Source of the DNA: a virus | Taxonomy: Duplodnaviria; Heunggongvirae; Uroviricota; Caudoviricetes | IMG/VR virus record: IMGVR_UViG_2859180793_000001 | Location: 2,529 to 66,528 of that record | Direction: 5' to 3' (one strand) | Length of the DNA stretch: 64,000 nt | Shown: positions 73 through 52,986 of the stretch, one piece after another | Numbering within the stretch: the stretch's first letter is position 1 | How the letters are laid out: each line of letters opens with the position of its first letter | The notes under the pieces: generated by a model | What the model was told of the DNA's origin: nothing | Seen by the model: only the letters and a program-made list of their open reading frames with translations | Database searches by the model: none | Program-made: the position numbers and the translations under genes

Positions 73-561
73 TTATTTGTGCTTTGGGAGCGCGTTGTCC
101 GAGCCAAAGCCTGCCATAAATTCCTGAAAGCGCTTCTTGTCGGCGTTACTGGCCAACTTTGGGTTGGGCAGCTTCGCGGCGCGCAGCGTGTCAATGATCT
201 CGACTTCGTTCGCCGTCAGCACGTGCTGATTCGCAAACACGCCCTCGATGGCCTCCCACGTCTCCGGCTGATACTCGCGCAGAACCAGTTGCAGGAAGTA
301 GACCGGATCGACGTTGAGAGCTTTGGCGAGCTGACCAACCTTCTGAATGGGCACCTTCGCACGGCCGCTCTTGATCATGGACACCATGTTGGGGGTGGAA
401 AAGCCCAGCTCGTCCGCCAACTCTTTCTGCGTCTTGCCGCTGATAGCCAGCATGTGGCCAACGTAATCAGCGACTCGGGGAATCTCGCCACGCTTGGGCG
501 CCGGAGGAAGCATGGTGCCCGCGCGCGGGCCGCGACGTTTGACGTTGTTGGTCTCGGTCAT
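73..561 (-). CDS. XRE-family helix-turn-helix transcriptional regulator (CI/Cro-like repressor candidate)
   Basis: 162-aa ORF. HTH segment ISGKTQKELADELGFSTPNMVSMIKSGRAKV. Only leftward gene at this end. Faces a divergent intergenic region (562..860) that contains palindromes. Confidence 0.7.
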   Translation of the reverse strand: MTETNNVKRRGPRAGTMLPPAPKRGEIPRVADYVGHMLAISGKTQKELADELGFSTPNMVSMIKSGRAKVPIQKVGQLAKALNVDPVYFLQLVLREYQPETWEAIEGVFANQHVLTANEVEIIDTLRAAKLPNPKLASNADKKRFQEFMAGFGSDNALPKHK

Positions 562-1218: not shown

Positions 1219-3243
1219 ATGAACGATCGTATCCACATCCTTCGCGAAGCTGTTGTCAAAGTCACACAGATGCTGTCGGGAAAGGGCATTCAGGTCACGC
1301 AACGAGGAGTCAGTGCTTATGTTCAGCCCGGCCCCGACGGTGAGCCCGTTCTCGTGAACCTGCCCTACATGCCGGACAACGCCACCGACGAACTGATCCA
1401 CGCCATTCAGGGCTTCCTGGACCACGAAGTCGCGCACATTCTGTTCAGCGACTTCAAGGCGCTCAAGAAGGTCAAGAGCGAGCGCCTGCACGGCATCATG
1501 AACATCATCGAGGACGCGCGCATCGAAAAGCTGATGGCGCAGAAGTTCCAGGGCTCGGCCAGCAACCTGTCCAACACCGCCCACTTCTTCCTCGCCAAAT
1601 ACATCACGCCGCGCATTCAAGAGTGCGCGAAGAAGGGCGACGCGAACGGTGTGGTGGCCGCAATGATGGCCCCGCTGATCCGCTCGATGGCCGGTCAGCA
1701 AATCTTCCGCGAGTTCGTGGACAAGCATAAGCACACGGTCGACCCCATCTACAGCAAGGTCGCCCACCTGGCGCCGCAAATCGAAAACTGCGCTTCCACA
1801 GAAGAAGCGCTACGCCTCGCGGAGCAGTTCATCAAGGCGATCAGCGACGGCAAGGGCGGCGCCGGCGGCGAGTCCGAAGAGGAAGCCAAGTCGTCGAAGA
1901 GCGGCAAGAAGGGCAGCATCGAGAAGAGCGGTAAGTCCAAGAAGTCCCGCCCGAGCGCGCCGCCTGGCGAAGAGGGTGAGGACGAAGATGACGCTGGCGG
2001 CGAGGGCGGCACCGGCGGCGTGGGTGAAGGCGAAAGCAAGAGCAAGGGCGGCGAGGGCGAAGCGTCGGAAGACGAGAGCGACGGCGAGGGCGAAGGCTCT
2101 GCCAGCTCTGGTGAAGGCGACGAGTCCGAAGACGAAAGCGACGCCGAAGGTGAGGGCGAAGAGGAAGGCGAGGACGACGGCGAGGGTGAGGGCGCGGAGG
2201 AGGGCGAGGACGAAGAGAGCAGCGGCGGCGAAATGGAGACCGGCTCGGCATCGGCCCTGATGGATGCGATCGACAAGGAAACCAAGAACGGTTTCGACGA
2301 TGCCGTGTCCACGCTCATCTCCAACGCCGCGACGGACGCCGCACGCGGTTCCGACTACCTCATCTACACGAAGGACTTCGACCTGGTGGAGCCGCTGCAT
2401 GTCGGTCGCGGCTACGACTCCACCATGCTCGCGCGGCTCCAGGACAAGGTGGACCACATGGTCTCCCCGCTCCAGAAGGATCTGGAGCGCGCCATCGCTG
2501 CGCGCTCGCTCGCCACCTGGGAGAACGGTCGCCGCTCTGGCCGGCTGCACGCGGCCAACCTGTCGCGCCTGGCGGTCGGCGATGGCCGTGTGTTCCGCCG
2601 CAAGACGGAAACCACCAGCAAGGACGTGGCGGTGGAACTGGTCGTCGACGCCTCTGGCTCCATGTCGGGCGGCAAGGTCCACACCGCTGCGCAGGCGGCC
2701 TACGCTCTCGCGTCCGTGCTGGACCGCATCGGCATCAAGAACGAGGTGATCTGCTTCACCACTGGCGAGTGCCCGATCGACCATCGCAAGCTCGAAGAGG
2801 AGAAGGCGAAGATCGGCAAGGAGTTCACGCGGGTCGAATCGCTCTACATGCCGATCATCAAAGGCTTCAACGAGCGCATGACCTCCACCGAGACCAAGAG
2901 CCGGTTCGCCTGGCTGCCGAACTCCAACATCTTGCGCAACAACGTCGACGGCGAGTGCGTGGAGATTGCGGCCCGCCGCCTGTTGTCCCGCCGCGAGACC
3001 GGCAAGGTCATGATGGTGCTCTCCGATGGCGCGCCCAGCTGCTACACCAGCAGCCCGCGTGCGCTCCAGAAGCACCTCAAGGACACCGTGCGCAAGGTCG
3101 AGGGCTCGGGCGTCAAGGTCGTCGGCATCGGGATCATGTCGACCGAAGTGGAGCGCTTCTACACGCGCAGCATGGTCCTCAATGACGTGGCAGAACTTCC
3201 CCAGCGCGTCATGAAGGAGCTGCGTCACCTGTTGTTGGGCTGA
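1219..3243 (+). CDS. cobT: CobT-like protein with C-terminal von Willebrand factor A (vWA) domain
   Basis: 674 aa. Long acidic Glu/Gly/Asp/Ser-rich linker (nt about 1860-2230). vWA domain with MIDAS motif VVDASGSMSG. Paired with the downstream CobS-like AAA ATPase, as in aerobic cobaltochelatase CobS/CobT and phage CobST homologues. Confidence 0.7.
   Translation: MNDRIHILREAVVKVTQMLSGKGIQVTQRGVSAYVQPGPDGEPVLVNLPYMPDNATDELIHAIQGFLDHEVAHILFSDFKALKKVKSERLHGIMNIIEDARIEKLMAQKFQGSASNLSNTAHFFLAKYITPRIQECAKKGDANGVVAAMMAPLIRSMAGQQIFREFVDKHKHTVDPIYSKVAHLAPQIENCASTEEALRLAEQFIKAISDGKGGAGGESEEEAKSSKSGKKGSIEKSGKSKKSRPSAPPGEEGEDEDDAGGEGGTGGVGEGESKSKGGEGEASEDESDGEGEGSASSGEGDESEDESDAEGEGEEEGEDDGEGEGAEEGEDEESSGGEMETGSASALMDAIDKETKNGFDDAVSTLISNAATDAARGSDYLIYTKDFDLVEPLHVGRGYDSTMLARLQDKVDHMVSPLQKDLERAIAARSLATWENGRRSGRLHAANLSRLAVGDGRVFRRKTETTSKDVAVELVVDASGSMSGGKVHTAAQAAYALASVLDRIGIKNEVICFTTGECPIDHRKLEEEKAKIGKEFTRVESLYMPIIKGFNERMTSTETKSRFAWLPNSNILRNNVDGECVEIAARRLLSRRETGKVMMVLSDGAPSCYTSSPRALQKHLKDTVRKVEGSGVKVVGIGIMSTEVERFYTRSMVLNDVAELPQRVMKELRHLLLG
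1860..2240 (+). repeat. low-complexity acidic Gly/Glu/Asp/Ser codon repeats inside cobT-like gene
   Basis: Reiterated GGCGAGGGCGAAG/GACGAAGAG units encoding the GEGEDEDDAGGEGG.. linker. Confidence 0.6.
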
Positions 3244-3319: not shown

Positions 3320-3366
3320 AGCGCATTGCTGCATCAACTAGCAAACACACTCTGTTGGAGATAACC

Positions 3367-4560
3367 ATGAGCGAGAACTCGGAAAAGATCACCTGCGAAA
3401 TCTGCAACGCGCAAGTCCACTCGATCCAAATCCACCTGCGTAAGGACCACGCTGATTGGACGGTGGAGAGCTACCAAGCTGCCTACCCGGACGCGCCGCT
3501 GCTGTCGGAAACGGCCAAGCGGGCGATCGCCGAGAAGCGCAAGGAATCGACGACTGCGGCGCCGCTGGAAATGGCCGGCACCGCCGCAGTCGCCGCTGCG
3601 CCGAACGTCGCCTCGCTGATGCCAAAGGGCCAGTTGGTGAAGCAGCCGTTCCACGAAGTCTTCGGCTTGGGCAAGGTTGCCGCTGCCCTGTCGAGCAAGA
3701 AAGAGCCGATCCCCATCAGCGTGGTCGCCACGTCGGCGCACCCGAACATGGTGCCCAACAAGTCGGACGACTACGTGTATGACGTGGACGAACTGAAGAA
3801 TGTCATCCTCGCGCTGGAACTGAACATCCCCTGCTACGTCTGGGGCCACAAGGGCTCGGGCAAGTCGGAGCTGTATGAGCAAATCTGCGCCCGCACCAAT
3901 CGCGCGATGATCCGCGTCCAGCACACGGTCAACACCGAAGAGAGCCACATCGTCGGACAGTGGGTCGTCAAAAACGGCCAGACCGAGTTCGAGTTGGGAC
4001 CGCTGCCGCTGGCCATGAAGAACGGCTGGGTCTACGCCGCCGACGAATACGACTTCGCGCTGCCGAGCGTGCTGTCGGTCTACCAGGCAGTGCTCGAAGG
4101 CAAGGCGCTGGTGATCAAGGAGGCCGACGCCGCCAACCGCGTGATCGAGCCGCATCCGAACTTCCGCTTCGTCGCCACCGGCAACACGAACGGCAGCGGC
4201 GACGAAACGGGCCTGTATCAGGGCACCTCGCTCCAGAACAGCGCCAACTACGACCGCTTCGGCATGGTCGTCCACAAGCAATACATGAAGAAACAGTTCG
4301 AGAGCCTGATCCTCCAGAAGCGAGTCGGTCTGGTGAAGGAAGACGCTGACAAGATGGTGGACTTCGCGGCGCTCGTGCGCGAAGCGTATGACGGCGCCAA
4401 GATCAGCGACGTGATTTCGCCTCGCACGCTGATCTACTCGGCCAAGATCGGCGTGAAGCGCGGCTCGTTCCGCCAGGGCATCCAGCTGTCCTTCATCAAC
4501 AAGCTGTCGAAGGTGGACCGCGAAGTGGTGGACGGTCTGGCACAACGCATCTTCGGCTGA
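3367..4560 (+). CDS. cobS: CobS-like MoxR-family AAA+ ATPase
   Basis: Start ATG 3367 with a GGAG RBS (the in-frame upstream ATG at 3313 lacks one). N-terminal C-x2-C/H-x4-H segment. Walker A GHKGSGKS, Walker B-like VYAADEYD. The RFVATGNTNG core is typical of the CobS/MoxR family. Confidence 0.7.
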   Translation: MSENSEKITCEICNAQVHSIQIHLRKDHADWTVESYQAAYPDAPLLSETAKRAIAEKRKESTTAAPLEMAGTAAVAAAPNVASLMPKGQLVKQPFHEVFGLGKVAAALSSKKEPIPISVVATSAHPNMVPNKSDDYVYDVDELKNVILALELNIPCYVWGHKGSGKSELYEQICARTNRAMIRVQHTVNTEESHIVGQWVVKNGQTEFELGPLPLAMKNGWVYAADEYDFALPSVLSVYQAVLEGKALVIKEADAANRVIEPHPNFRFVATGNTNGSGDETGLYQGTSLQNSANYDRFGMVVHKQYMKKQFESLILQKRVGLVKEDADKMVDFAALVREAYDGAKISDVISPRTLIYSAKIGVKRGSFRQGIQLSFINKLSKVDREVVDGLAQRIFG

Positions 4561-24924: not shown

Positions 24925-25500
24925 ATGAAAAAGCACAAACGAATCTTCACAGTTGGCCTGGCCATTGGCGTTGCGCTCGCGTTCGCAGGCTGCGGCCGCA
25001 CCGAGCAGGTCGCACAGATTCCGCAGCCGCAGGTCGTGCAGCAAGCCGCACCGGCAGCCGCTGGCCAACCAGTCATCGTCAACGCCGCGCCTGCGCAGAG
25101 CGGTGGCGGCATGGGCGACATGCTGATGGGTGGCGCGATCGGCTATCTGCTGGGCTCCAGCGGCAACCGCAGCGCCCCGGTCCACGAAGAGCGCCGCGTC
25201 ACCAATGTGACGAACGTGACCAAGCACTACCACGTCACCGAAGCGCCGAAGCCGGCTGCACCGGCAGCGCAAGCGGCCACGCCAGCAGCAACGCCCGCAC
25301 CGGCGCCGGCCAAGCCCGCCTACGCGCCGACCTACGCGAACAAGCCGGCAGCGCCGACCGCCAGCTACAGCCCGAGCTACGCGAGCAAGTCGAGCACCAG
25401 CTCCAGTTCGTCCAGCTCCTCTTGGAGTCGCCCGAGCAGTTCGTCCTACTCGTCGATGAGTCGCAGCAGTTCCAGCAGTTTCAGCAGCGGTCGCCGATGA
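24925..25500 (+). CDS. lipoprotein (Pro/Ala/Ser-rich)
   Basis: Start ATG with a CAGGAGA RBS. Signal peptide plus lipobox LAFAGC. Low-complexity C-terminal half. Confidence 0.55.
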   Translation: MKKHKRIFTVGLAIGVALAFAGCGRTEQVAQIPQPQVVQQAAPAAAGQPVIVNAAPAQSGGGMGDMLMGGAIGYLLGSSGNRSAPVHEERRVTNVTNVTKHYHVTEAPKPAAPAAQAATPAATPAPAPAKPAYAPTYANKPAAPTASYSPSYASKSSTSSSSSSSSWSRPSSSSYSSMSRSSSSSFSSGRR

Positions 25501-41670: not shown

Positions 41671-42129
41671 TTAGACCGAGCGCTCGGTAGGGCGCATCAG
41701 CATGTCGGAAGGGGCCGTGAGGTTGCCGTCCTCGTCGACGAGCGCAGCGCGCACCTTCAGGCCGGTCATGCGGCTGCGAACTTCGGCGGGACCGATTCCG
41801 GTTTCGGTAAGGTGAGCATCGCCCCACTGCATGAGCCCCACCAGCACCGGTAGAAGCTCCACTGCGGCGCGCGTGGGCCGGTATTCGAAGCGTTCGCGGT
41901 CGCCAGGGTCTCGGTAGGGAGTTCGCCGCAGCAGACCGGCGCTCACCAGTGCCTTGAGGCGATTGGAGAGAACCGCAGTCGAGCATTGAAGACGCTCCTG
42001 GAAATCATCGAAGCGACGAACGCCGGAAAACACGTCTCGGAGGACGAGCAAGGTCCACTTCTCGCCGACCAGTTTGAGGGCGGCAGCGATGGAGCAGTTT
42101 TCGAGGTCTACGGGGAGCCGATCGGACAT
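41671..42129 (-). CDS. HxlR-family winged-helix transcriptional regulator
   Basis: CSIAAALKLVGEKWTLLVLRDVFSGVRRFDDFQERL matches the HxlR/MarR-type HTH signature. Confidence 0.7.
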   Translation of the reverse strand: MSDRLPVDLENCSIAAALKLVGEKWTLLVLRDVFSGVRRFDDFQERLQCSTAVLSNRLKALVSAGLLRRTPYRDPGDRERFEYRPTRAAVELLPVLVGLMQWGDAHLTETGIGPAEVRSRMTGLKVRAALVDEDGNLTAPSDMLMRPTERSV

Positions 42130-45763: not shown

Positions 45764-46111
45764 TCGCTCAAATGGTTGCCTGCAAGCAGTAAGTCGTTTT
45801 CGGCGCTTGAGTGCAGGGAGTCGCTTCTTTTCTCGGGGGCTTGTTCTTGCCTGTCGGGTTGTCATACGCGGAGATGCCTCCGATGTGGCCCAACGGTGGA
45901 ATGGCTTCCCTACCTCTCACTACCAGGCTGCAAAGGCTGTGGGGGGGTAGGGGGGCTTATTCTTCCGCTAGGGTTCCTCATCGGAGGGGTATCAAAACAA
46001 TAACAACCCCTCACTGTGTTTGTTCATTGTAGAGATCACGGACCAAAGCTCGCCGCGCGGGATACGGGTGCGAAGCCAGACAGGCGACCCCGTGGAGAGC
46101 CCAAGTCCGGT

Positions 46112-46142
46112 CCCCTATAAGAACGTCGGAGAGTCCCTATAA
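46112..46142 (-). promoter_or_regulatory. two class-B motif copies (CCCTATAAG x2; minus orientation CTTATAGGG)
   Basis: Copies at 46112..46121 and 46134..46142, 22 nt apart. Confidence 0.4.
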
Positions 46143-46194
46143 GTTTCCAAGGCCGCGTGCCTTCTTCCTAGGAGAAAAACAGCCCCTGCCGCTC

Positions 46195-46203
46195 TTATAG
46201 GGC
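46195..46203 (+). promoter_or_regulatory. class-B motif CTTATAGGG (plus orientation)
   Basis: About 75 nt upstream of gene 46278. Confidence 0.4.
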
Positions 46204-46277
46204 GATTGCATGTTCCCACCCTCACTCCTGCGTCAGCTTGCGAAGCTGAGAGCTTCCTACTGACGCACGGAGGCGAC

Positions 46278-46472
46278 ATGCCGGTTCCCACCACACGTCC
46301 TGACTTGGCTTGTGACACTGCATCTATCGAAACAACAGTCACGGAGCAAGGGATGTTCGGTATCACGCATGAGGGGTGCAACGTTCTCTACAAGGGTCGC
46401 GTTATTGAAGAGTGCAAGAGCGAGGCCGAAGCCATCGCCCGTCGCGACGAAATCATCAACGTCTACATGTAA
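46278..46472 (+). CDS. hypothetical protein (64 aa)
   Basis: ACGGAGG RBS. Confidence 0.45.
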   Translation: MPVPTTRPDLACDTASIETTVTEQGMFGITHEGCNVLYKGRVIEECKSEAEAIARRDEIINVYM

Positions 46473-46482
46473 GGAGCTGGTG

Positions 46483-46626
46483 ATGAGCGCGCAAACCGTT
46501 CAGATGTATCGCAACAAACTTCGTCGCATGGGGCAGTGGGCCGGCGTGCGACACCTGCGCAATCAAGGCATCGCCTTCGAGGACGCTTACTTCATCGTGT
46601 TTGACCGGGCACCGCGCCTGGTGTGA
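46483..46626 (+). CDS. hypothetical protein (47 aa)
   Basis: AAGGAG RBS. Confidence 0.4.
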   Translation: MSAQTVQMYRNKLRRMGQWAGVRHLRNQGIAFEDAYFIVFDRAPRLV

Positions 46627-46639
46627 GAGGAGAGCCGCA

Positions 46640-46813
46640 ATGGCAATGGAACAACTGATCGAGCGCATGAAGGCGCATGGCTTCCGCGAGGAAGGAAACG
46701 TGATCGTGCATGACGGCGAACTGGTGCCGGTCTACGCCACATGGGTGGACGCCATCCTGGGCTGCATCGACGTGGCGGCCGAAGACATTCTGCTGCCGGA
46801 AGAGGAGAACTGA
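46640..46813 (+). CDS. hypothetical protein (57 aa)
   Basis: GAGAGGAGAG RBS. Confidence 0.4.
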   Translation: MAMEQLIERMKAHGFREEGNVIVHDGELVPVYATWVDAILGCIDVAAEDILLPEEEN

Positions 46814-46814
46814 A

Positions 46815-46982
46815 ATGGACATGGGAATCACGCTGTTGGCTTACATGCTCGCCGGCTGCGCAATCGCTGCGACGGCCTGGGGTATTGCCAAGACGGTGGA
46901 TGCCGCGCTGTGGGCGCAGGACAAGCTGACGCGGATGTGGCTGCGCCGGATGCCGGCCCGTTTGCGTGCCATCAATCGGTAG
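46815..46982 (+). CDS. small membrane protein (55 aa)
   Basis: Single TM helix, basic C-terminus. Start 2 nt after the upstream stop. Confidence 0.4.
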   Translation: MDMGITLLAYMLAGCAIAATAWGIAKTVDAALWAQDKLTRMWLRRMPARLRAINR

Positions 46983-46994
46983 TCAATGCTGACT
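46981..46994 (+). promoter_or_regulatory. palindromic element AGTCAATGCTGACT
   Basis: Begins an about 260-bp non-coding stretch. Confidence 0.45.
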
Positions 46995-47257
46995 CTACGC
47001 GGCCACACCAGGCCGCCTGGAGTCTCCCAACCAGCGGCCTAGGCCAGGCGCCTCGGCCAGGCCAGTTGGCCAACCCAACCATGTTCGCCCGATCCACGCG
47101 CCCCAGGGAACTGCCATGGGCACGCCTTGGAAGAGTGCCACGGGTGGACATTTCTAGCGCAGCACGCAGGGACAGATAGCGCTCCTGCCTGCGCCCCAAC
47201 CACGTTCCCATGTTGCCGGTGACGAACCCCAATGCGGGTAACGCATACTGCACATGT

Positions 47258-47277
47258 AGTCAGCACTGACTGATAAA
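47258..47277 (+). promoter_or_regulatory. palindromic promoter-like element AGTCAGCACTGACT+GATAAA
   Basis: 27 nt upstream of ATG 47304. Confidence 0.5.
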
Positions 47278-47303
47278 ACGCAAAACAACTTCAGAGGATC
47301 GCT

Positions 47304-47543
47304 ATGCACCGTTTCCCCAAAGCCAAAGCCATTGAATCCACTATCGAGCGCGCGGAACCGACCGACGTGCCGGACATGCAGAACGATCAGGAGCGCGAAC
47401 CGCTGCCGCAGCGTCTGTATCAAGGCATGAGCGACTATACGCTCGCTGCCTATCTGGAAGACATGCAGGAGCGGGCTGAGATCGAGCAACTGCGCCGCAC
47501 GATTCGCACCAATGGCAAGCTGACCGCCACCGACCTCTACTAA
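47304..47543 (+). CDS. hypothetical protein (79 aa)
   Basis: AGAGGA RBS. Confidence 0.45.
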   Translation: MHRFPKAKAIESTIERAEPTDVPDMQNDQEREPLPQRLYQGMSDYTLAAYLEDMQERAEIEQLRRTIRTNGKLTATDLY

Positions 47544-47907
47544 GCACGAGGGCGGTATGCCAAGACAGTGAACCGCTGCGCAGGCTGTGATGCGCAGCAG
47601 GGCTTCGCAACAGCGAAGCGGGTGGCAAGTCACCAAGGAGCGCGTCCACGGGCGTGATGTGTCAATGTGGGCCGCATGCTGCCGGTCTTTGGTGCTCACG
47701 GGATACGGCGCGCCAGCTGACTGGGCGGCCCGAGGGATACGGCGAGCAAGCCAGATTGGACAGAGCCAGGCGGTTGCCTGCCCGTCTCCTTGGCCAGACG
47801 TAGGGGCCCGCCTGCGTGACGCCTGGGTGCGCCTGAGCGCACGCGAGTATCACGCCCCGCGCCTCCCTACAAGCGAAACCCCATGATCCTCGCCGATACA
47901 ACATCGA

Positions 47908-47966
47908 TGCTTAAAAACATTTTGCTTAAAAAAGTGCTTGCTTGTCCCTGTGGTGTCTGTAGAATT
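47908..47966 (+). promoter_or_regulatory. sigma-70-like promoter with A-tract UP element for low-GC moron
   Basis: GCTTAAAAA repeats. -35 TTGCTT (47938..47943), 16-bp spacer ending in TG, then -10 TAGAAT (47960..47965). Confidence 0.45.
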
Positions 47967-48021
47967 GTCTCTGTTGCGAGTGCAACAACACACAAACAAA
48001 CACACACGAAAGGTAAACATC

Positions 48022-48624
48022 ATGACCAACGCAAAGCGCACCGTTAAGGCAGAAACGATCCAGGCAAACATCGTGAAGGCACTGCAAGCACGTATCGACG
48101 CCGCACCGAATGCGAATCAAGCCGACAACCTGACGCGCGAACGTCAATGCTTTGAAGGTTCAAGCGCGCTCGCAATGATCGAAAAATGCAAAGCGCTGGA
48201 AGTCGATTTTCAAGCGCTCGCACGCAAGTTCGAGATTGCAGACAAGTCGAATGCTGATTTTGTCGCAGTGTATGCACTGCAAAAGATTCGCAAAGCATTG
48301 TTCGCGCTTGCGCTGAACTCGCGTGCGTCTTTCGACAAATACAGCAATTCGATTATTCAGAACCTTTGCGACCTGCAAGACCTGAATACCAAGCATACGC
48401 GCATGTCCATCTGCAACGCGATCGAGTTTGACGAACTCGAACAAGTGCGCACGATCAAGCGCTATCACAATTGCAGCGAATCGACCGCTTCCACGCAATC
48501 GTCGTCCACTCGCATGATGCTTAACTATCTGAACATCTGCGCTGTTGCGAAGGGTCGCAAAAACGACGTTATGACGTTTGCTGACACGCTCGCAGCAAAG
48601 CAAGTGCAAACGATGTTTGCATAA
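48022..48624 (+). CDS. hypothetical protein (200 aa) in low-GC compositional island
   Basis: GC about 50% against a 65% backbone. Atypical codon usage (GCA, AAA, TTT and TCG are frequent). Confidence 0.55.
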   Translation: MTNAKRTVKAETIQANIVKALQARIDAAPNANQADNLTRERQCFEGSSALAMIEKCKALEVDFQALARKFEIADKSNADFVAVYALQKIRKALFALALNSRASFDKYSNSIIQNLCDLQDLNTKHTRMSICNAIEFDELEQVRTIKRYHNCSESTASTQSSSTRMMLNYLNICAVAKGRKNDVMTFADTLAAKQVQTMFA

Positions 48625-48631
48625 TAACAAC

Positions 48632-48645
48632 AGTCAGCGCTGACT
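48632..48645 (+). promoter_or_regulatory. palindromic element AGTCAGCGCTGACT (extended AACAGTCAGCGCTGACTGTT)
   Basis: Followed by TTGACA and a half copy AGTCAGCGC at 48661..48669. Confidence 0.5.
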
Positions 48646-48763
48646 GTTGACAAGCGAGACAGTCAGCGCCCTAGCGCAGGGGTTCAACGACCGGTCAGAC
48701 CGAGACCGATGTCCTAGAACTCCTGCGCGCCCGCCTATACCCAGCCTTCCTCGTTCCGGTCCC

Positions 48764-48810
48764 CAAAATGCGCTTCCTTATAGAGCCAGGGGCGGGAAAA
48801 GTGACGTTCC
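48764..48810 (+). promoter_or_regulatory. tandem class-B motifs TTCCTTATAGAGCC / TTCCTTATACAGCC
   Basis: 14-bp direct repeat at 48764..48777 and 48797..48810, upstream of gene 48911. Confidence 0.45.
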
Positions 48811-48910
48811 TTATACAGCCGTGCGCGGGTGAGACAACCGGGCGGATGGGAGCTTGCACACCACAGCGTCACAGCCTACAGTCGGCCGCTCACATTGAAC
48901 GGGGGAACCT

Positions 48911-49108
48911 ATGGCAGTCACCATTACCAAGAGCCAGCTGGAGACGCTGGCAATCGCCGTATTCAGCGAGCGCAACCGCATCGAGAGGGAGCTGGGCACC
49001 GACCGAGCCATCACCAACAAGGAGTGGTTGGAGCTGGACACGATTCGGGGGATTTTGCACTCCGCGATCGAGGAAGGAGGGAGGGACTACGAGATTCGCA
49101 AAAAGTAG
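48911..49108 (+). CDS. hypothetical protein (65 aa)
   Basis: GGGGGAA RBS. Confidence 0.45.
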   Translation: MAVTITKSQLETLAIAVFSERNRIERELGTDRAITNKEWLELDTIRGILHSAIEEGGRDYEIRKK

Positions 49109-49127
49109 GGTATGTCCGTTCGCCCGA

Positions 49128-49141
49128 TCCTTATACAATCC
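49128..49141 (+). promoter_or_regulatory. class-B motif TCCTTATACAATCC
   Basis: 43 nt upstream of the lipoprotein gene 49184. Confidence 0.4.
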
Positions 49142-49183
49142 CCCGCGCCGGCCGCTGCGCGGCCTAAAAGAACGGGGAACATA

Positions 49184-49633
49184 ATGGGCATGAGGACTTG
49201 GACGGGGGTCAACCTGGTGGTGCTGCTGGCAGGATGCGCAAGCGTCTCGCCGGCGCAAGACCCCGATTATCTGAAAGCCGAAGCGATGATGGCCCAGCAG
49301 CGTCAGGATGCCGTCGTCACGTGCGTGGGCAAGACCCAGTGCGACAAGGCATGGGCGCTGACGCGCGTCTACGTGTCGGAGCGCTCCGCCACCAAGGTGC
49401 AGCTCTCGACCGACACCCTCATCGAGACCTACGGGCCCGTGGACCGCGTGACCGTGAGCCTGCGCGCCGTGCGCACGCCAGGACCGGGTGACACGCAGAC
49501 CATCGAGATTGGAGCGAACTGCCGAGGGATGTATGCGCCTGGCGGCGGCCCGGGCTCCTTCTACATCCCCTGCATCAAGCAGGTGGTGCCGCACGTCGTG
49601 CAGTTCCGGCCGTTCGTCCAGGCGCGTCTGTAG
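49184..49633 (+). CDS. lipoprotein (149 aa)
   Basis: Signal peptide plus lipobox LLAGCAS. Confidence 0.5.
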   Translation: MGMRTWTGVNLVVLLAGCASVSPAQDPDYLKAEAMMAQQRQDAVVTCVGKTQCDKAWALTRVYVSERSATKVQLSTDTLIETYGPVDRVTVSLRAVRTPGPGDTQTIEIGANCRGMYAPGGGPGSFYIPCIKQVVPHVVQFRPFVQARL

Positions 49634-49635
49634 GT

Positions 49636-49917
49636 TCAGGCTGGCTTGGCCAGCTTCTCCAGGTAGGCGAGCTGCTCAGGGGTGAGGCTCTTGAACTGCT
49701 CAAGCAGCTTGGCCTGCTTGCCGCGACTCGATTCCTTGGCCTGGCGACGCGCTTCGAGGTGTGGACGGAAGTCTTCGACGTTGGCGTTCAACGCCAGCAC
49801 TTCCATGACCGCGCCTTGGCTGATTTTGAACTGTTTGGCGATTTCCCCGATCCGCGTCGCCGCGTCTTTGTTCACCACGACGGTGTGACGCGGGTTCTCA
49901 TTCTTTTCTTCTGCCAT
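49636..49917 (-). CDS. hypothetical protein with HTH-like segment (93 aa)
   Basis: TRIGEIAKQFKISQGAVMEVL is HTH-like. Distal gene of the SOS-box cassette. Confidence 0.4.
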   Translation of the reverse strand: MAEEKNENPRHTVVVNKDAATRIGEIAKQFKISQGAVMEVLALNANVEDFRPHLEARRQAKESSRGKQAKLLEQFKSLTPEQLAYLEKLAKPA

Positions 49918-50001
49918 CGAGCATTTTCCTCAAGTTTCATGCACACATGCGCATTTGCTTGAGAATTATAGTGCTTGAGAAGTTGTTTCTGACAGCGCCA
50001 C

Positions 50002-50397
50002 TCAAACGCCGGCTTCAACCAGCGCATTTTCGATCTGTTCTTCCGTCGGCGGGGCGGCTTCTGAGTGCTCCGGGGCAGGGCCACCAATATCGCCAGGCGC
50101 AGGAAAACGGACCAGCCACGTCTGCGCGTAGTCCGTGATGGTGTCGATGCCCGACACGCGGCGCTCGTAACCCTTGAGCAGCAGCTGGGAGCCGTTGGCC
50201 CAAACCAGTTCGGCGTCGAACAGCATCCACTCGCGCTTGTCCTCGGTCTGGATCAACTCCGCCACCCGCGTGCTCAGGCGGTCGATGGTGTCCCGTTTGG
50301 TGTTCAGGCGCAGCACGCCGCGTGTGCCTCCCATCGCCCGCATCCACTTCTGCTTCATGATGCCGCCCAACTTGAGCGGCGTGACATGCACTTTCAT
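50002..50397 (-). CDS. hypothetical protein (132 aa), LexA-box-associated
   Basis: ATG at 50397 with an AGGTG RBS. A LexA-like box lies immediately upstream. Confidence 0.45.
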   Translation of the reverse strand: MKVHVTPLKLGGIMKQKWMRAMGGTRGVLRLNTKRDTIDRLSTRVAELIQTEDKREWMLFDAELVWANGSQLLLKGYERRVSGIDTITDYAQTWLVRFPAPGDIGGPAPEHSEAAPPTEEQIENALVEAGV

Positions 50398-50409
50398 CGC
50401 TGCACCTAA

Positions 50410-50429
50410 TACTGTATGGATATACAGTA
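50410..50429 (-). promoter_or_regulatory. LexA/SOS box TACTGTATGGATATACAGTA (CTGT-N8-ACAG)
   Basis: 17 of 20 matches to the TACTGTATATATATACAGTA consensus. 13-32 nt upstream of the minus-strand start at 50397. Confidence 0.6.
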
Positions 50430-50435
50430 TAGCGC

Positions 50436-50462
50436 CCAAAAAGAAGCCCGCCGAAGCGGGCT
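50436..50462 (-). terminator. rho-independent terminator (minus strand)
   Basis: On the minus strand: AGCCCGC-uucg-GCGGGCU followed by UCUUUUU. Confidence 0.6.
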
Positions 50463-50466
50463 GAGT

Positions 50467-50646
50467 CTAGACAGTAAAGCCAATGCGCGGCGAGTCGTCC
50501 GGCTCGGGTTCGCTCGGGGCGAGCAGTCCGTAAGGCATCTCACGCAGCGTGAGGAGGCCCGCCAGGCAAAGCGGATTGTGGGTGATGACCGTCATGATGA
50601 CGATCGTGGCCAGAATCGCGAGGTTCAGCAGCAGTGCGTGGTTCAT
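50467..50646 (-). CDS. small membrane protein (about 60 aa)
   Basis: Start at 50646 with an AGAGG RBS (the longer ORF runs to 50679). Two hydrophobic helices. Confidence 0.4.
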   Translation of the reverse strand: MNHALLLNLAILATIVIMTVITHNPLCLAGLLTLREMPYGLLAPSEPEPDDSPRIGFTV

Positions 50647-50697
50647 GGGGCCTCTGATGTAAGTTGGAACTGACATCATACGCAGGCCCGCTCGGCA

Positions 50698-50710
50698 GCT
50701 CTATAAGGGC
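50698..50710 (-). promoter_or_regulatory. class-B motif (minus orientation GCCCTTATAGAGC)
   Basis: Between the helicase stop and the small membrane gene. Confidence 0.4.
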
Positions 50711-52282
50711 TCAGGCGGCCAGCTTCGTGAGGCCAAGCCCCTCGAAGTCGAAGTCCGCGCCGGCGGGCAGGATGTTCTCGGCGAACCCCGGCGTGCCCTC
50801 AATGATGGCGCGGCGCTGCTGCGCGTGCGCCTTCAGGTGGCCGTTGTAGGCGTCCTCGAAGTCGACCACGAGGCAGACGTTGGGTCCGAACTTCTTCGCA
50901 CGCAGGCCGCGACCGATGCGCTGGCGCAGCGACACTTCAGCCTTGCCGCCGCCCGCGAGAATCACCATGCCGACCGCCGGCACGTCCACGCCCACGTCGA
51001 GGATGGTGGTGCCGATGAGCACGTCGAGCTGACCCTTGGCCAGGCGGGAGAGCGCGGCCTTGCGCTCCTTCTGGTCGTTCTCACCCCGGATGAACGCGGC
51101 ACGCACGCCGGCGGCCTTGAGCATCTCGACGAGCTTCTCGCCATGCTTGGTCTGCTGGACCAGCACCATGACCGTCATGCCGAGCTTGGTGCCGCGCGTG
51201 GCCTCGTAGACGATCGCCGCATTGCGCTCAATCGCATCCACGATGCCCAGACGATAGGCAGCCTGCCACGCGGTGCCACGGTAGAGCTTGGGCGGCTGCT
51301 GTGTGAGCGGGATGATCTTGAAGTAGGGCTTGGCCAGGATGCCGCGCTCGATCAGCATCTGCTCGCTCACCTTGATGCCGATCGGACCGAACGCAGCCAT
51401 CAGCCGCATGTTCGACTCTTCGTCGTCCTTCATGAACGGCGTCGCCGTCAGCGCAAGGCGGTAGTGGGCGTTTTTGCAGTGCTGGAGGATCTCGTAGTAG
51501 CTGTTGCCGCCAGCCTCGTGCGCCTCTTCGCCGATCACCAGCTCGAACTTGGAGAGCAGGTCGATCGTCTGCTGCCGTCGGCGGGCCTGCGCATTCTGCT
51601 TCTCCACGTCATCGTCCGGGTCGGGCAGCGCGAGCCGTGCGACCAAGGTCTGCACCATCCCCACGCACACCTTCTTGACCGCTTGGCGCTCGTTACCGTG
51701 CGCGTCGACGATCGTGTGACCGAACTGACCGTCACCGAGCACCGAGACCGGGATGCCCATGTCGCGCTCGATCGCGTCCTTCATCTGATACATGAGGATC
51801 GAGCGGGTGGTCAGGAACAGGGTGGGGCGACCGATGCGGGCGATGGCCAGCTTGGCCACCTTCGACTTGCCCGCGCCCGTGGCCAGGCGCGCGATGATCT
51901 GGCCGTGCCGCAGCAGTCGCTCGATCGTGTCGGGCTGATAGTCGTAGCGCGGATCGTCCGGGAAGTCGTCGACCTTGGGGTTCTCCGGCCCCAGCGGCCC
52001 TGGCAGCGGCCGACGCACGGTGTTCACCGTGTAGCCCTTGCGGCGCAGCGCTGCGGCCACGAACTGCGTGAAGCCGGCGGGGAATGTGCTCTTGCGGAAG
52101 TCGTAAAAGGACGAGCGGCCATCCCACCCGCCGGACTTGAACGCCATCGTGTTCTCGGCGCCGTCCACGCGGTAGGAGAGCACCCGCTGCACCTCTAGCG
52201 CGACAGCTCGCGAAGGCTGATGCAGCTTGGCGATGACCGCGTTGCTGGCGATGGTTACGACTTCACTCATTGGCCTTGCCAT
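50711..52282 (-). CDS. SF2 DEAD/DEAH-box DNA helicase (UvsW/RecG-like candidate)
   Basis: Walker A ATGAGKSKVA. DEAH-like VIGEEAHEAG. Motif III LTATP. Motif VI QRIGRGLR. 523 aa. Confidence 0.75.
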   Translation of the reverse strand: MARPMSEVVTIASNAVIAKLHQPSRAVALEVQRVLSYRVDGAENTMAFKSGGWDGRSSFYDFRKSTFPAGFTQFVAAALRRKGYTVNTVRRPLPGPLGPENPKVDDFPDDPRYDYQPDTIERLLRHGQIIARLATGAGKSKVAKLAIARIGRPTLFLTTRSILMYQMKDAIERDMGIPVSVLGDGQFGHTIVDAHGNERQAVKKVCVGMVQTLVARLALPDPDDDVEKQNAQARRRQQTIDLLSKFELVIGEEAHEAGGNSYYEILQHCKNAHYRLALTATPFMKDDEESNMRLMAAFGPIGIKVSEQMLIERGILAKPYFKIIPLTQQPPKLYRGTAWQAAYRLGIVDAIERNAAIVYEATRGTKLGMTVMVLVQQTKHGEKLVEMLKAAGVRAAFIRGENDQKERKAALSRLAKGQLDVLIGTTILDVGVDVPAVGMVILAGGGKAEVSLRQRIGRGLRAKKFGPNVCLVVDFEDAYNGHLKAHAQQRRAIIEGTPGFAENILPAGADFDFEGLGLTKLAA

Positions 52283-52307
52283 CCTATAGTTGGAAGAGTA
52301 AAGTATA

Positions 52308-52321
52308 AGTCAATATTGACT
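52308..52321. promoter_or_regulatory. palindromic element AGTCAATATTGACT in divergent region
   Basis: TATACT -10-like box on the minus side (facing the helicase). ATTCCT on the plus side (facing ParB-like 52345). Confidence 0.5.
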
Positions 52322-52344
52322 ATTCCTAAACTGGGATACCCACA

Positions 52345-52986
52345 ATGTCGCAATTCCCGACGGTGGACCCGAAGCTGTTGCGCCACAACCCGTGGAACAC
52401 CAACGTCGTGTCGCCGGACAACGAGGCCAAGCTGGACGAATCGGTCGAGCGGCTGGGCATGTTCAAGCCGATCATCGTGCGCGAGCTGCCCGACGGCACG
52501 CTGGAAATCCTGGGCGGGGCACACCGCCGCGATGCTGCGATTCGCAAGAAGTTGGCCTCTGTTCCGATCATGAATCTGGGTCGCATCTCTGACCAGCGGG
52601 CCAAAGAAATCAGCCTCGTGGACAACGGCCGCTACGGCGCGGACGACACGCTGCGCCTGGCAGAGCTGCTGGATGGTTTGGGCAATCCCGACGAGCTGTC
52701 GAAGTTCATGCCCTACACCGACGCCGACTTCGCGTCGATCTTCTCGTCAGTGAGTATTGCGCTGGACGAGCTAGACATACCCGATGACGACGAGCCCGCG
52801 ACGCATTTGCCCACCGAAAAGAAGGTGCAGACGCACCAGATCATGCGGTTCAAGGTGCCGGTGGAGGACGTGGGTCGGGTGACAGACGTGATCGAACGGA
52901 TCATGAAGACCCAGCGCTTCACAGAAGAGGACAGCCTCACCAATGCCGGCAACGCGCTGGTCCACCTCTGCACCAGGGGAGCGTGA
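52345..52986 (+). CDS. ParB-like nuclease domain protein
   Basis: LEILGGAHRRDAA is a ParB/sulfiredoxin-fold motif. 213 aa. Confidence 0.6.
   Translation: MSQFPTVDPKLLRHNPWNTNVVSPDNEAKLDESVERLGMFKPIIVRELPDGTLEILGGAHRRDAAIRKKLASVPIMNLGRISDQRAKEISLVDNGRYGADDTLRLAELLDGLGNPDELSKFMPYTDADFASIFSSVSIALDELDIPDDDEPATHLPTEKKVQTHQIMRFKVPVEDVGRVTDVIERIMKTQRFTEEDSLTNAGNALVHLCTRGA

Follow-up and report, generated by a model that had tools for sequence, protein, structure and literature searches.

A LexA-type operator and an unannotated SOS-associated gene form a small insertion in a large betaproteobacterial prophage

Does a prophage gene that sits behind a close match to the operator of the host SOS repressor LexA belong to the damage response of its host, and what might its product do there? 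The question is raised by a 64,000-nucleotide (nt) stretch of a viral genome of the class Caudoviricetes (IMG/VR record IMGVR_UViG_2859180793_000001, positions 2,529 to 66,528), which we refer to in its full length as the window and whose own numbering we use throughout. The box lies at 50410-50429, in front of a minus-strand gene (50002..50397) for an uncharacterised protein of 131 amino acids (aa); the original prediction, which raised the locus from its sequence, placed the gene correctly and gave it 132 aa by counting the stop codon. The protein is 100% identical to Ralstonia pickettii C0Q88_07635, encoded at about 1.567 Mb on a 1.7-Mb contig of GCA_002849525.1. Surrounding genes of the window encode a UvsW-like helicase, two ParB-like proteins, a DnaE-type polymerase and a large terminase, and their nearest relatives are found in SSU5-type phage-plasmids, in Acinetobacter plasmids of about 110 kb and in the phages nickie and RHEph10. 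Given these relatives and the R. pickettii identity, we conclude that the element is a large prophage of the SSU5-type lineage in a betaproteobacterial host. Literature searches for LexA control in SSU5-type phage-plasmids returned nothing relevant.

The operator reads TACTGTATGGATATACAGTA in window orientation and TACTGTATATCCATACAGTA on the minus (gene) strand. It is built from 8-bp perfect inverted arms, TACTGTAT and ATACAGTA, around a 4-bp centre, and differs from the 20-mer consensus TACTGTATATATATACAGTA at two positions. The box first reported is thus real, and its score rises on recounting from 17/20 to 18/20. Not one of 100 dinucleotide-preserving shuffles contained a site with three or fewer mismatches to the 20-mer. 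The bare core CTGT-N8-ACAG, by comparison, is not significant when taken alone, as about 0.8 occurrences are expected by chance and 53 of the 100 shuffles have one; the significance rests on the full 20-mer and its position, not on the core. In the 64-kb window the core occurs once, at this box, and scans with the core, with the 20-mer and with weighted positions all bear out the earlier statement that there is only one such box. The weighted LexA-box scan, suggested at the outset as a check, found no second site of comparable strength, and the next-best match, at 47246, is much weaker. This weaker box-like palindrome (47246-47265, TACTGCACATGTAGTCAGCA, of the form CTGC-N8-TCAG) stands among only short overlapping open reading frames (ORFs). 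Its 16-bp core is kept as the reverse complement at about 9138 in a sister prophage (L001), and the palindrome may be a further LexA site, albeit a weak one, or some other operator.

The palindrome is of the type that the host clade uses for its own SOS genes. Its minus-strand 20-mer is identical to the box 5' of imuA-imuB-dnaE2 on the Ralstonia solanacearum megaplasmid (L015, position 1535), the imuA box of Burkholderia glumae agrees with it at 19/20 positions, and Remigi et al. found the imuABC operon behind CTGTN8ACAG to be LexA-dependent in a Ralstonia background (PMC4151985). On these grounds the clade uses the CTGT-N8-ACAG motif, and not a different LexA box such as GTTC-N7-GTTC; at alphaproteobacterial imuA loci, retrieved by the same route, the direct repeats GTTC-N7-GTTC or GAAC-N7-GAAC are found instead. 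The window box shares with the imuA-imuB-dnaE2 boxes of Ralstonia and Cupriavidus the same palindrome with an AT-rich spacer, a position over the -10-like hexamer and presumed start region, and a place just 5' of the Shine-Dalgarno sequence. It differs from them in that the gene it would control is a prophage gene of uncharacterised role rather than a chromosomal repair or mutagenesis operon, and in the poor -35 element of its module, which is explained by the terminator that the module abuts.

Only 12 nt separate the end of the box from the ATG of the 131-aa gene. Between them lies a Shine-Dalgarno sequence, AGGTG (50403..50407, minus strand), 5 nt 5' of the ATG, for which comparable GGTG motifs are present in homologue loci. 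A -10-like hexamer, TATACT (50426..50431, minus strand), agrees with TATAAT at 5/6 positions and overlaps the left arm of the box, so that the two elements are physically joined; we infer that it acts as part of the promoter. Two results weigh against this assignment and against SOS control through it: the best -35 candidate, TCGGCG, matches at only 3/6 positions and falls inside the terminator stem, and a consensus promoter scan with a 9-of-12 threshold found no promoter for the gene. An Rfam scan of 46000-52500 gave no match.

The site is conserved together with the gene across a wide range of contexts. Of the 80 distinct homologues left once duplicates were removed, 70 are directly preceded by a strict palindrome, and the count rises to 75 if a relaxed form is allowed; at one exception among the 80 (L013) the box stands before the preceding gene of the same operon. 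Homologues of the Ralstonia type occur in three unrelated contexts, namely the sister prophage L001, a metagenomic mobile element (L003) and an R. pickettii plasmid (L006), where the family gene lies beside MazEF and Tn3, and in all three the box is 10-12 nt before the ATG. Fourteen of 15 Oxalobacteraceae loci have the box, here 20-35 nt before the ATG, as do 43 of 50 IMG/VR loci when the strict form is required. The position of the window operator is the same in L001, in a third phage (L228) and in 64 distinct homologue promoters. These 64 upstream regions have one layout, with a -10-like TATACT fused to the left box arm; the composite TATACTGT recurs in most of them, and several add a -35 element, TTGACN or TTGCGN, 16-18 nt upstream.

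A different palindrome takes this place in one lineage. In a Casimicrobiaceae-like group of metagenome-assembled genomes from GTDB, some of them uncultured betaproteobacterial (L038-L048), all 11 loci carry TACCGTA-N6-TACGGTA, that is CCGT-N8-ACGG, just upstream of position 3001. Relative to CTGT-N8-ACAG the variant has a T-to-C change in the CTG core that is mirrored on both arms. The same TACCGTA-N6-TACGGTA palindrome is found 18-34 nt 5' of dnaE2 in three high-GC metagenomic contigs; in one of the loci (L108, palindrome at 3640-3659) the dnaE2 gene, for an error-prone polymerase, matches NF004225 with 1513 bits, and further loci listed for the variant are L172, L177, L113 and L174. Because CCGT-N8-ACGG stands both at the family position and 5' of dnaE2, the site appears to follow the SOS operator of its lineage, and CCGT-N8-ACGG looks like a lineage-specific LexA operator variant. 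This tracking of the lineage is the strongest argument for reading the site as a LexA operator and the family as part of the SOS regulon.

The box might also be a chance palindrome or a non-functional relic in front of a gene that is constitutive or unexpressed. The chance expectation for the core alone and the empty promoter scan are what this explanation has in its favour, and we hold it to be very improbable. It is rejected because the full 20-mer, not reached in the shuffles, is identical to an SOS operator of the host genus and because its position is conserved across the family. Moreover, phage alleles that have diverged by about 30% in their coding sequence differ in the box at one base at most, and the ratio of nonsynonymous to synonymous divergence of the 131-aa ORF (dN/dS, 0.33) marks it as a real gene. 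We therefore retain the central claim of the original prediction, that a host SOS operator precedes a phage accessory gene, and regard SOS control as well supported by the identity with the R. solanacearum imuA box, the LexA dependence reported for that operon type and the 70 of 80 homologues; LexA would be expected to bind the site, and DNA damage to induce the gene.

How the gene came to lie where it does is answered by relatives of the phage. It had been described as the first of a two-gene minus-strand cassette with a 93-aa gene downstream, the coordinates of which (49636..49917, minus strand) are right. In three relatives, L051 (110-kb contig), L053 (Paraburkholderia) and L054, the helicase is followed by a small membrane ORF, a hairpin with T-run (seen 3' of the small membrane gene in L051 and L054) and the 93-aa gene; near that position these relatives have no box and, by hmmsearch, no PH-like ORF. 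Since this order exists in the absence of the box and of the 131-aa gene, we interpret the hairpin as the terminator of the upstream unit. In the window it occupies 50436..50462 on the minus strand (AGCCCGCTTCGGCGGGCT followed by TCTTTTT), with a stem at 50462..50445 of 7 pairs, 6 of them G-C, and it is the only terminator-like site in 49300-50900. The terminator-like hairpin reported earlier is thus confirmed, but it is not dedicated to insulating a cassette: it closes the unit of the helicase and the small membrane protein gene (50467..50679, minus strand; 70 aa as the longest ORF, 59 aa in the public annotation), a backbone gene, and relatives that lack the 131-aa gene have such a hairpin too.

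The same relatives identify the 93-aa gene, which lies outside the inserted module, as a backbone gene with a promoter-like element of its own, since they keep it without box or 131-aa gene; the two-gene cassette is accordingly not upheld. The element (49956..49981, minus strand) consists of a perfect TATAAT (49970..49965) between two direct TTCTCAAGCA repeats, with an inverted CTTGAG downstream of it at 49929-49934. The block that contains this element is almost unchanged between the window and L001, and L051 keeps the element as well. The 93-aa product is probably a small DNA-binding protein; of the helix-turn-helix (HTH) likeness proposed for it, only sub-threshold matches were recovered (HTH_5, E 0.045; YlxM, E 0.048). 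The sequence at 49929-49981 may be an autoregulatory operator for this putative HTH protein. The protein has few homologues, all inspected ones being in phages of the same type, and a tblastn search against plasmids gave no match. The box and the 131-aa ORF together are an insertion of about 460 bp, a moron, between the upstream terminator and the promoter of the 93-aa gene. The search of 49300-50900 found no terminator between the 131-aa and 93-aa genes, and SOS transcripts may therefore read through into the latter.

The moron has a history that sets it apart from its flanks. For the backbone genes (helicase, ParB and the 93-aa gene), the window and L001 share 94-96% protein identity, with a synonymous divergence (dS) of 0.36-0.41 and a dN/dS of 0.06-0.08, whereas the 131-aa protein is 70% identical, with a dS of 0.67 and the dN/dS of 0.33 given above. 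L228 is a third near-identical phage, as judged on its 93-aa protein alone (98% identical to that of the window), and its 131-aa gene is yet a different allele, with about 71% identity, preceded by the identical box. Across the three phages with their roughly 70% identical alleles (window 50002-50397, L001 6001-6402, L228 2018-2416) the operator is identical or differs at one base. The 131-aa gene is under purifying selection and is far more divergent than its surroundings, and it has a separate, recombining history typical of a moron; the G+C content of its module is not distinctive. Divergent alleles behind a near-fixed operator suggest either allele replacement by recombination or a function in an arms race. 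The module lies between backbone genes, is missing from close relatives, brings its own regulatory signals and has a history unlike that of its neighbours, which are the marks by which morons are recognised.

Its layout recalls other LexA-controlled prophage genes, namely 186 tum, N15 antC, the Gifsy antirepressors and LexA-regulated morons. Common to all is a host LexA operator before a small accessory gene of a temperate phage in a compact, self-contained module, with expression timed by damage, as would hold here. The 131-aa gene is distinguished from each of them by the lack of any sequence or profile similarity, by its absence from sister phages, and by the association of its family mainly with SRAP (SOS response-associated peptidase) rather than with immunity regions.

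What kind of protein, then, does the operator control? The 131-aa protein had no match in Pfam, NCBIfam, PHROGs, PADLOC or a PDB sequence profile search, with none in Pfam or PHROGs at E <=0.1, and tblastn against 50,697 phage records found nothing. A profile of its homologues identifies a family nonetheless large: it matched 73 representatives at E <=0.001 among 1.84 billion proteins and, in a larger collection clustered at 90% identity, more than 429 clusters. GTDB species genomes with the family include Janthinobacterium, Massilia, Undibacterium, Herbaspirillum, Casimicrobiaceae and uncultured Betaproteobacteria, and 50 viral or prophage loci of IMG/VR carry the gene. It is an unannotated family of SOS-box-associated proteins, about 100-130 aa in length, in Betaproteobacteria and their prophages, and it looks undescribed. 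In 63 diverse members the near-invariant positions are G12, G27, L29, R41, A46, L59, D61, G76, E78, Q92 and W94, within the motifs R..RVA, GFER and DYAQSW; in the Ralstonia subfamily the protein is extended by a variable linker and by a conserved, subfamily-specific C-terminal helix (APTEEQIENALVEAGV / APTEQQIEEVLAEAGV).

An AlphaFold2 (AF2) model from the 63-sequence alignment reached a mean pLDDT (predicted local distance difference test) of 90.6 and replaced an unusable earlier one from a shallow alignment of 20 sequences (mean pLDDT 52.6). Its core, over about residues 1-97, is all-beta and resembles PH-like domains, whose fold is a seven-stranded beta-sandwich with a capping C-terminal helix, as in PH, PTB, EVH1 and Ran-binding domains. 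Foldseek searches of the model against BFVD and PDB gave no match at E <=0.001. The 131-aa protein is predicted to be a PH-like beta-sandwich with no obvious catalytic residues.

The clearest indication of function is the company that the family keeps. An adjacent SRAP gene (PF02586) is present at 32 of the 80 distinct loci, downstream on the same strand in 18, divergent across a shared operator in 11 and upstream on the same strand in 3; among the IMG/VR viral loci the count is 28/50. This recurring context, together with the lack of Pfam, PHROG, NCBIfam or PADLOC matches, does not favour the functions guessed at in the original prediction (a Tum-like antirepressor, a toxin, or a defence or anti-defence factor). 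Aravind et al. (2013; PMC3765255) defined SRAP by its SOS neighbourhoods and noted that ImuB-C can also be encoded by a stand-alone gene, in operons with LexA and with "SRAP by itself". They describe the domain as some 80 residues long and predominantly beta-strand; a C-terminal Trp and two or more basic residues are conserved in it. The present family resembles the neighbourhoods of SRAP, YedK and YoqW collected by Aravind, Anand and Iyer: a LexA box precedes the gene of a small, beta-rich and apparently non-catalytic protein, which shares an operon with SRAP or is transcribed divergently from it. Prophages, too, are among the carriers of such modules, and the arrangement S24 - X - SRAP was seen once. 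The family differs in that profile comparison gives no link between it and ImuB-C, in that its predicted fold is PH-like, and in that the copy in the window phage lost, or never had, its SRAP partner. Literature searches for a described SRAP partner returned nothing relevant; they turned up little in vivo work on bacterial SRAP, and in that work no report of a bacterial partner protein. A further point of comparison is offered by the accessory subunits of SOS polymerases (UmuD', YolD/YqjX), which are SOS-induced, about 100-140 aa in length, mostly beta-strand, and adaptors rather than enzymes, as the 131-aa protein would be by prediction. They have SH3-like or S24 cores and known polymerase partners, unlike the 131-aa family with its different fold, and no polymerase gene adjoins the family gene in the loci whose genes were listed or searched.

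Several neighbourhoods deserve mention in their own right. In L013 (3574-5023, and also in L014), one LexA box heads an operon of a 131-aa S24 peptidase of UmuD size, a family member and SRAP. In L003 (6001-10537), next after the pair of PH-like and SRAP genes come an AcrVA2-like gene and a DndB gene, and these suggest a neighbourhood of the anti-defence or leading-region type. Janthinobacterium loci (L022, L023 and L025-L027, about 3363-3880) have, directly downstream of the family gene, a pair of small paralogous ORFs (about 81-84 aa) that begin MSKFRKPLTTVELVEIRL and MSRIRAPLSIEQLKEIQG, the start of the first overlapping the stop codon of the family gene; SRAP is not present at these loci, and the ORF pair may be an alternative partner module. 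Among IMG/VR loci L057-L105, many modules of box and PH-like gene, with or without SRAP, are no more than about 1 kb away from the end of a predicted 33-66-kb prophage, either as prophage cargo near the end or as host flank captured by the prophage caller. The module in L073 abuts a gpP-like terminase and a portal gene, neighbours which show that the viral loci include genuine prophage interiors. On a Variovorax plasmid (L017, 4238-4257), dnaE2 stands alone, without imuA or imuB, behind TACTGGTTTTATATCCAGTA, and an SRAP gene lies about 3.5 kb upstream of it on the opposite strand.

Based on its operator and its neighbourhoods, we propose that the locus is a LexA-gated, single-gene moron encoding an adaptor for SOS damage tolerance, most likely one that works with host SRAP. 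In the lysogen, LexA on the -10 and start region would keep the 131-aa gene off. On DNA damage, active RecA would promote the self-cleavage of LexA, and the gene would be transcribed at the time when the prophage would be induced, with some SOS transcripts reading through into the 93-aa gene. The product would serve SOS damage tolerance in a non-catalytic role, as an adaptor or a regulatory subunit, probably together with SRAP, which crosslinks to abasic sites in single-stranded DNA. A tblastn search of the window for SRAP found none, and so the phage copy would act on the host SRAP, or on a related host factor, during replication in a damaged cell. Taken as a package this is the account that we consider probable, with reservations, and its operator and moron parts are much firmer than the part concerning the SRAP partner. 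That part has to contend with the partner having to come from the host, with the 48 of 80 loci that have no adjacent SRAP (15 of these are cut by a contig end), and with the Casimicrobiaceae-like group, in which there is no SRAP within 3 kb. The hypervariability of the gene among near-identical phages also sits uneasily with it, as this would equally fit a specificity or arms-race function such as that of an antirepressor. A more far-reaching proposal can be offered only tentatively: that this is an undescribed and widespread SOS-regulon family, a dedicated partner of SRAP/YedK that recruits it, regulates it or resolves its abasic-site crosslinks; that prophage copies diversify rapidly so as to manipulate the host pathway when they are induced; and that the promoters expose CCGT-N8-ACGG as a lineage-specific LexA operator variant.

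Three other functions have to be weighed against an SRAP adaptor. An antirepressor like 186 Tum, N15 AntC or those of Gifsy would bind a non-cleavable prophage repressor after SOS induction and trigger lytic growth. The sole LexA box in the 64-kb window would suit such a protein, as would the 162-aa ORF at 73..561 (minus strand), which by eye, from its translation only, has an XRE-type HTH stretch (GKTQKELADELGFSTPNMVSMIKSGRAKVP) and no obvious S24 peptidase part. Many family members lie inside predicted prophages, and hypervariable alleles behind a fixed operator are what is expected of a determinant of immunity specificity. Close relatives of the same phage type, however, have neither gene nor box, so the switch does not depend on the 131-aa gene as a constant component; family members are known from non-phage contexts too, such as the R. 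pickettii plasmid; about 40% of them are paired with SRAP, a DNA-damage protein; and the Pfam, PHROG and phage tblastn searches gave no similarity to Tum/DinI, Ant, AntC, Gfo/Gfh or any PHROG family. We consider an antirepressor unlikely. A second possibility, which the SRAP neighbourhoods themselves invite, is that the protein is a divergent stand-alone ImuB-C domain protein, accessory to a translesion polymerase (DnaE2 or Y-family) and not to SRAP. Stand-alone ImuB-C genes do occur in SRAP and LexA operons (PMC3765255), and the family has a beta core with conserved R41, R79 and W94, descriptors that are generic and do not establish homology. In hhalign the family pattern G-F-E-R...D-Y...W pairs with G-P-E-R...D-Y...W of the ImuB C terminus, which is a lead only: the comparison with six ImuB C-termini, from plasmid imuA-imuB-dnaE2 loci, gave a probability of 0.7% and an E value of 0.084 (with a shallow ImuB alignment and no GSU0042-like stand-alone sequence in it). 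Further evidence points away from ImuB-C: the family profile, run by hmmsearch against the six full ImuB proteins, did not match the C-terminal domain; there is no protein of ImuB length among the 73 profile matches from the 1.84 billion representatives; ImuB-C has about 30 extra C-terminal residues and about 40 fewer N-terminal residues than the 131-aa family; and its reported structure is a beta-barrel of novel fold (PMC12926913), as against the PH-like model obtained here. This identity, too, seems to us rather improbable.

Small lineage-specific SOS effectors, among them modulators, division inhibitors and toxins, are common, and the gene could be another of these, unrelated to SRAP: a modulator of RecA or LexA (DinI- or PsiB-like), a division inhibitor analogous to SulA, or a toxin. 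The adjacency to SRAP would then reflect co-regulation only. Such an effector would accommodate the 48 loci without an adjacent SRAP and the Janthinobacterium gene that is followed by two small paralogous ORFs instead. It is hard to reconcile with the adjacency of 40% of loci to one family in three arrangements, including a shared divergent operator, which is far above chance if, as we assume from our own estimate, the family gene is present in about 1-3 copies per genome. No transmembrane segment was noticed in the protein, and no known toxin, antitoxin or defence profile matches it. We therefore give such an effector little credence, and continue to favour an SOS damage-tolerance adaptor that would most likely act with host SRAP.

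Other features of the window lie apart from this module. The segment 47900-48650 is a low-GC island (0.485, compared with 0.616 for the whole window) and may be another foreign insertion; the 228-aa ORF inside it (47938..48624) had no Pfam match. A tRNA-Arg gene (anticodon GCG) is located at 25243-25329 (minus strand), and an HxlR-type HTH regulator at 41671-42129 (minus strand; PF01638, E 4e-18).

The regulatory logic of this locus, in which host LexA gates an accessory gene of a prophage, is ordinary and well known. The value of the finding lies instead in an unannotated gene family linked to SOS and SRAP, and in the operator variant that came with it. As a candidate SRAP cofactor, the family would make the question of a bacterial SRAP partner testable in Ralstonia, Janthinobacterium or Massilia. 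CCGT-N8-ACGG, which looks like a LexA operator variant, would be a clean natural example of an SOS operator that changes in step with its lineage. The phage copies without an adjacent SRAP, hypervariable behind an invariant operator, suggest that phages tune or exploit the damage tolerance of their hosts on induction.

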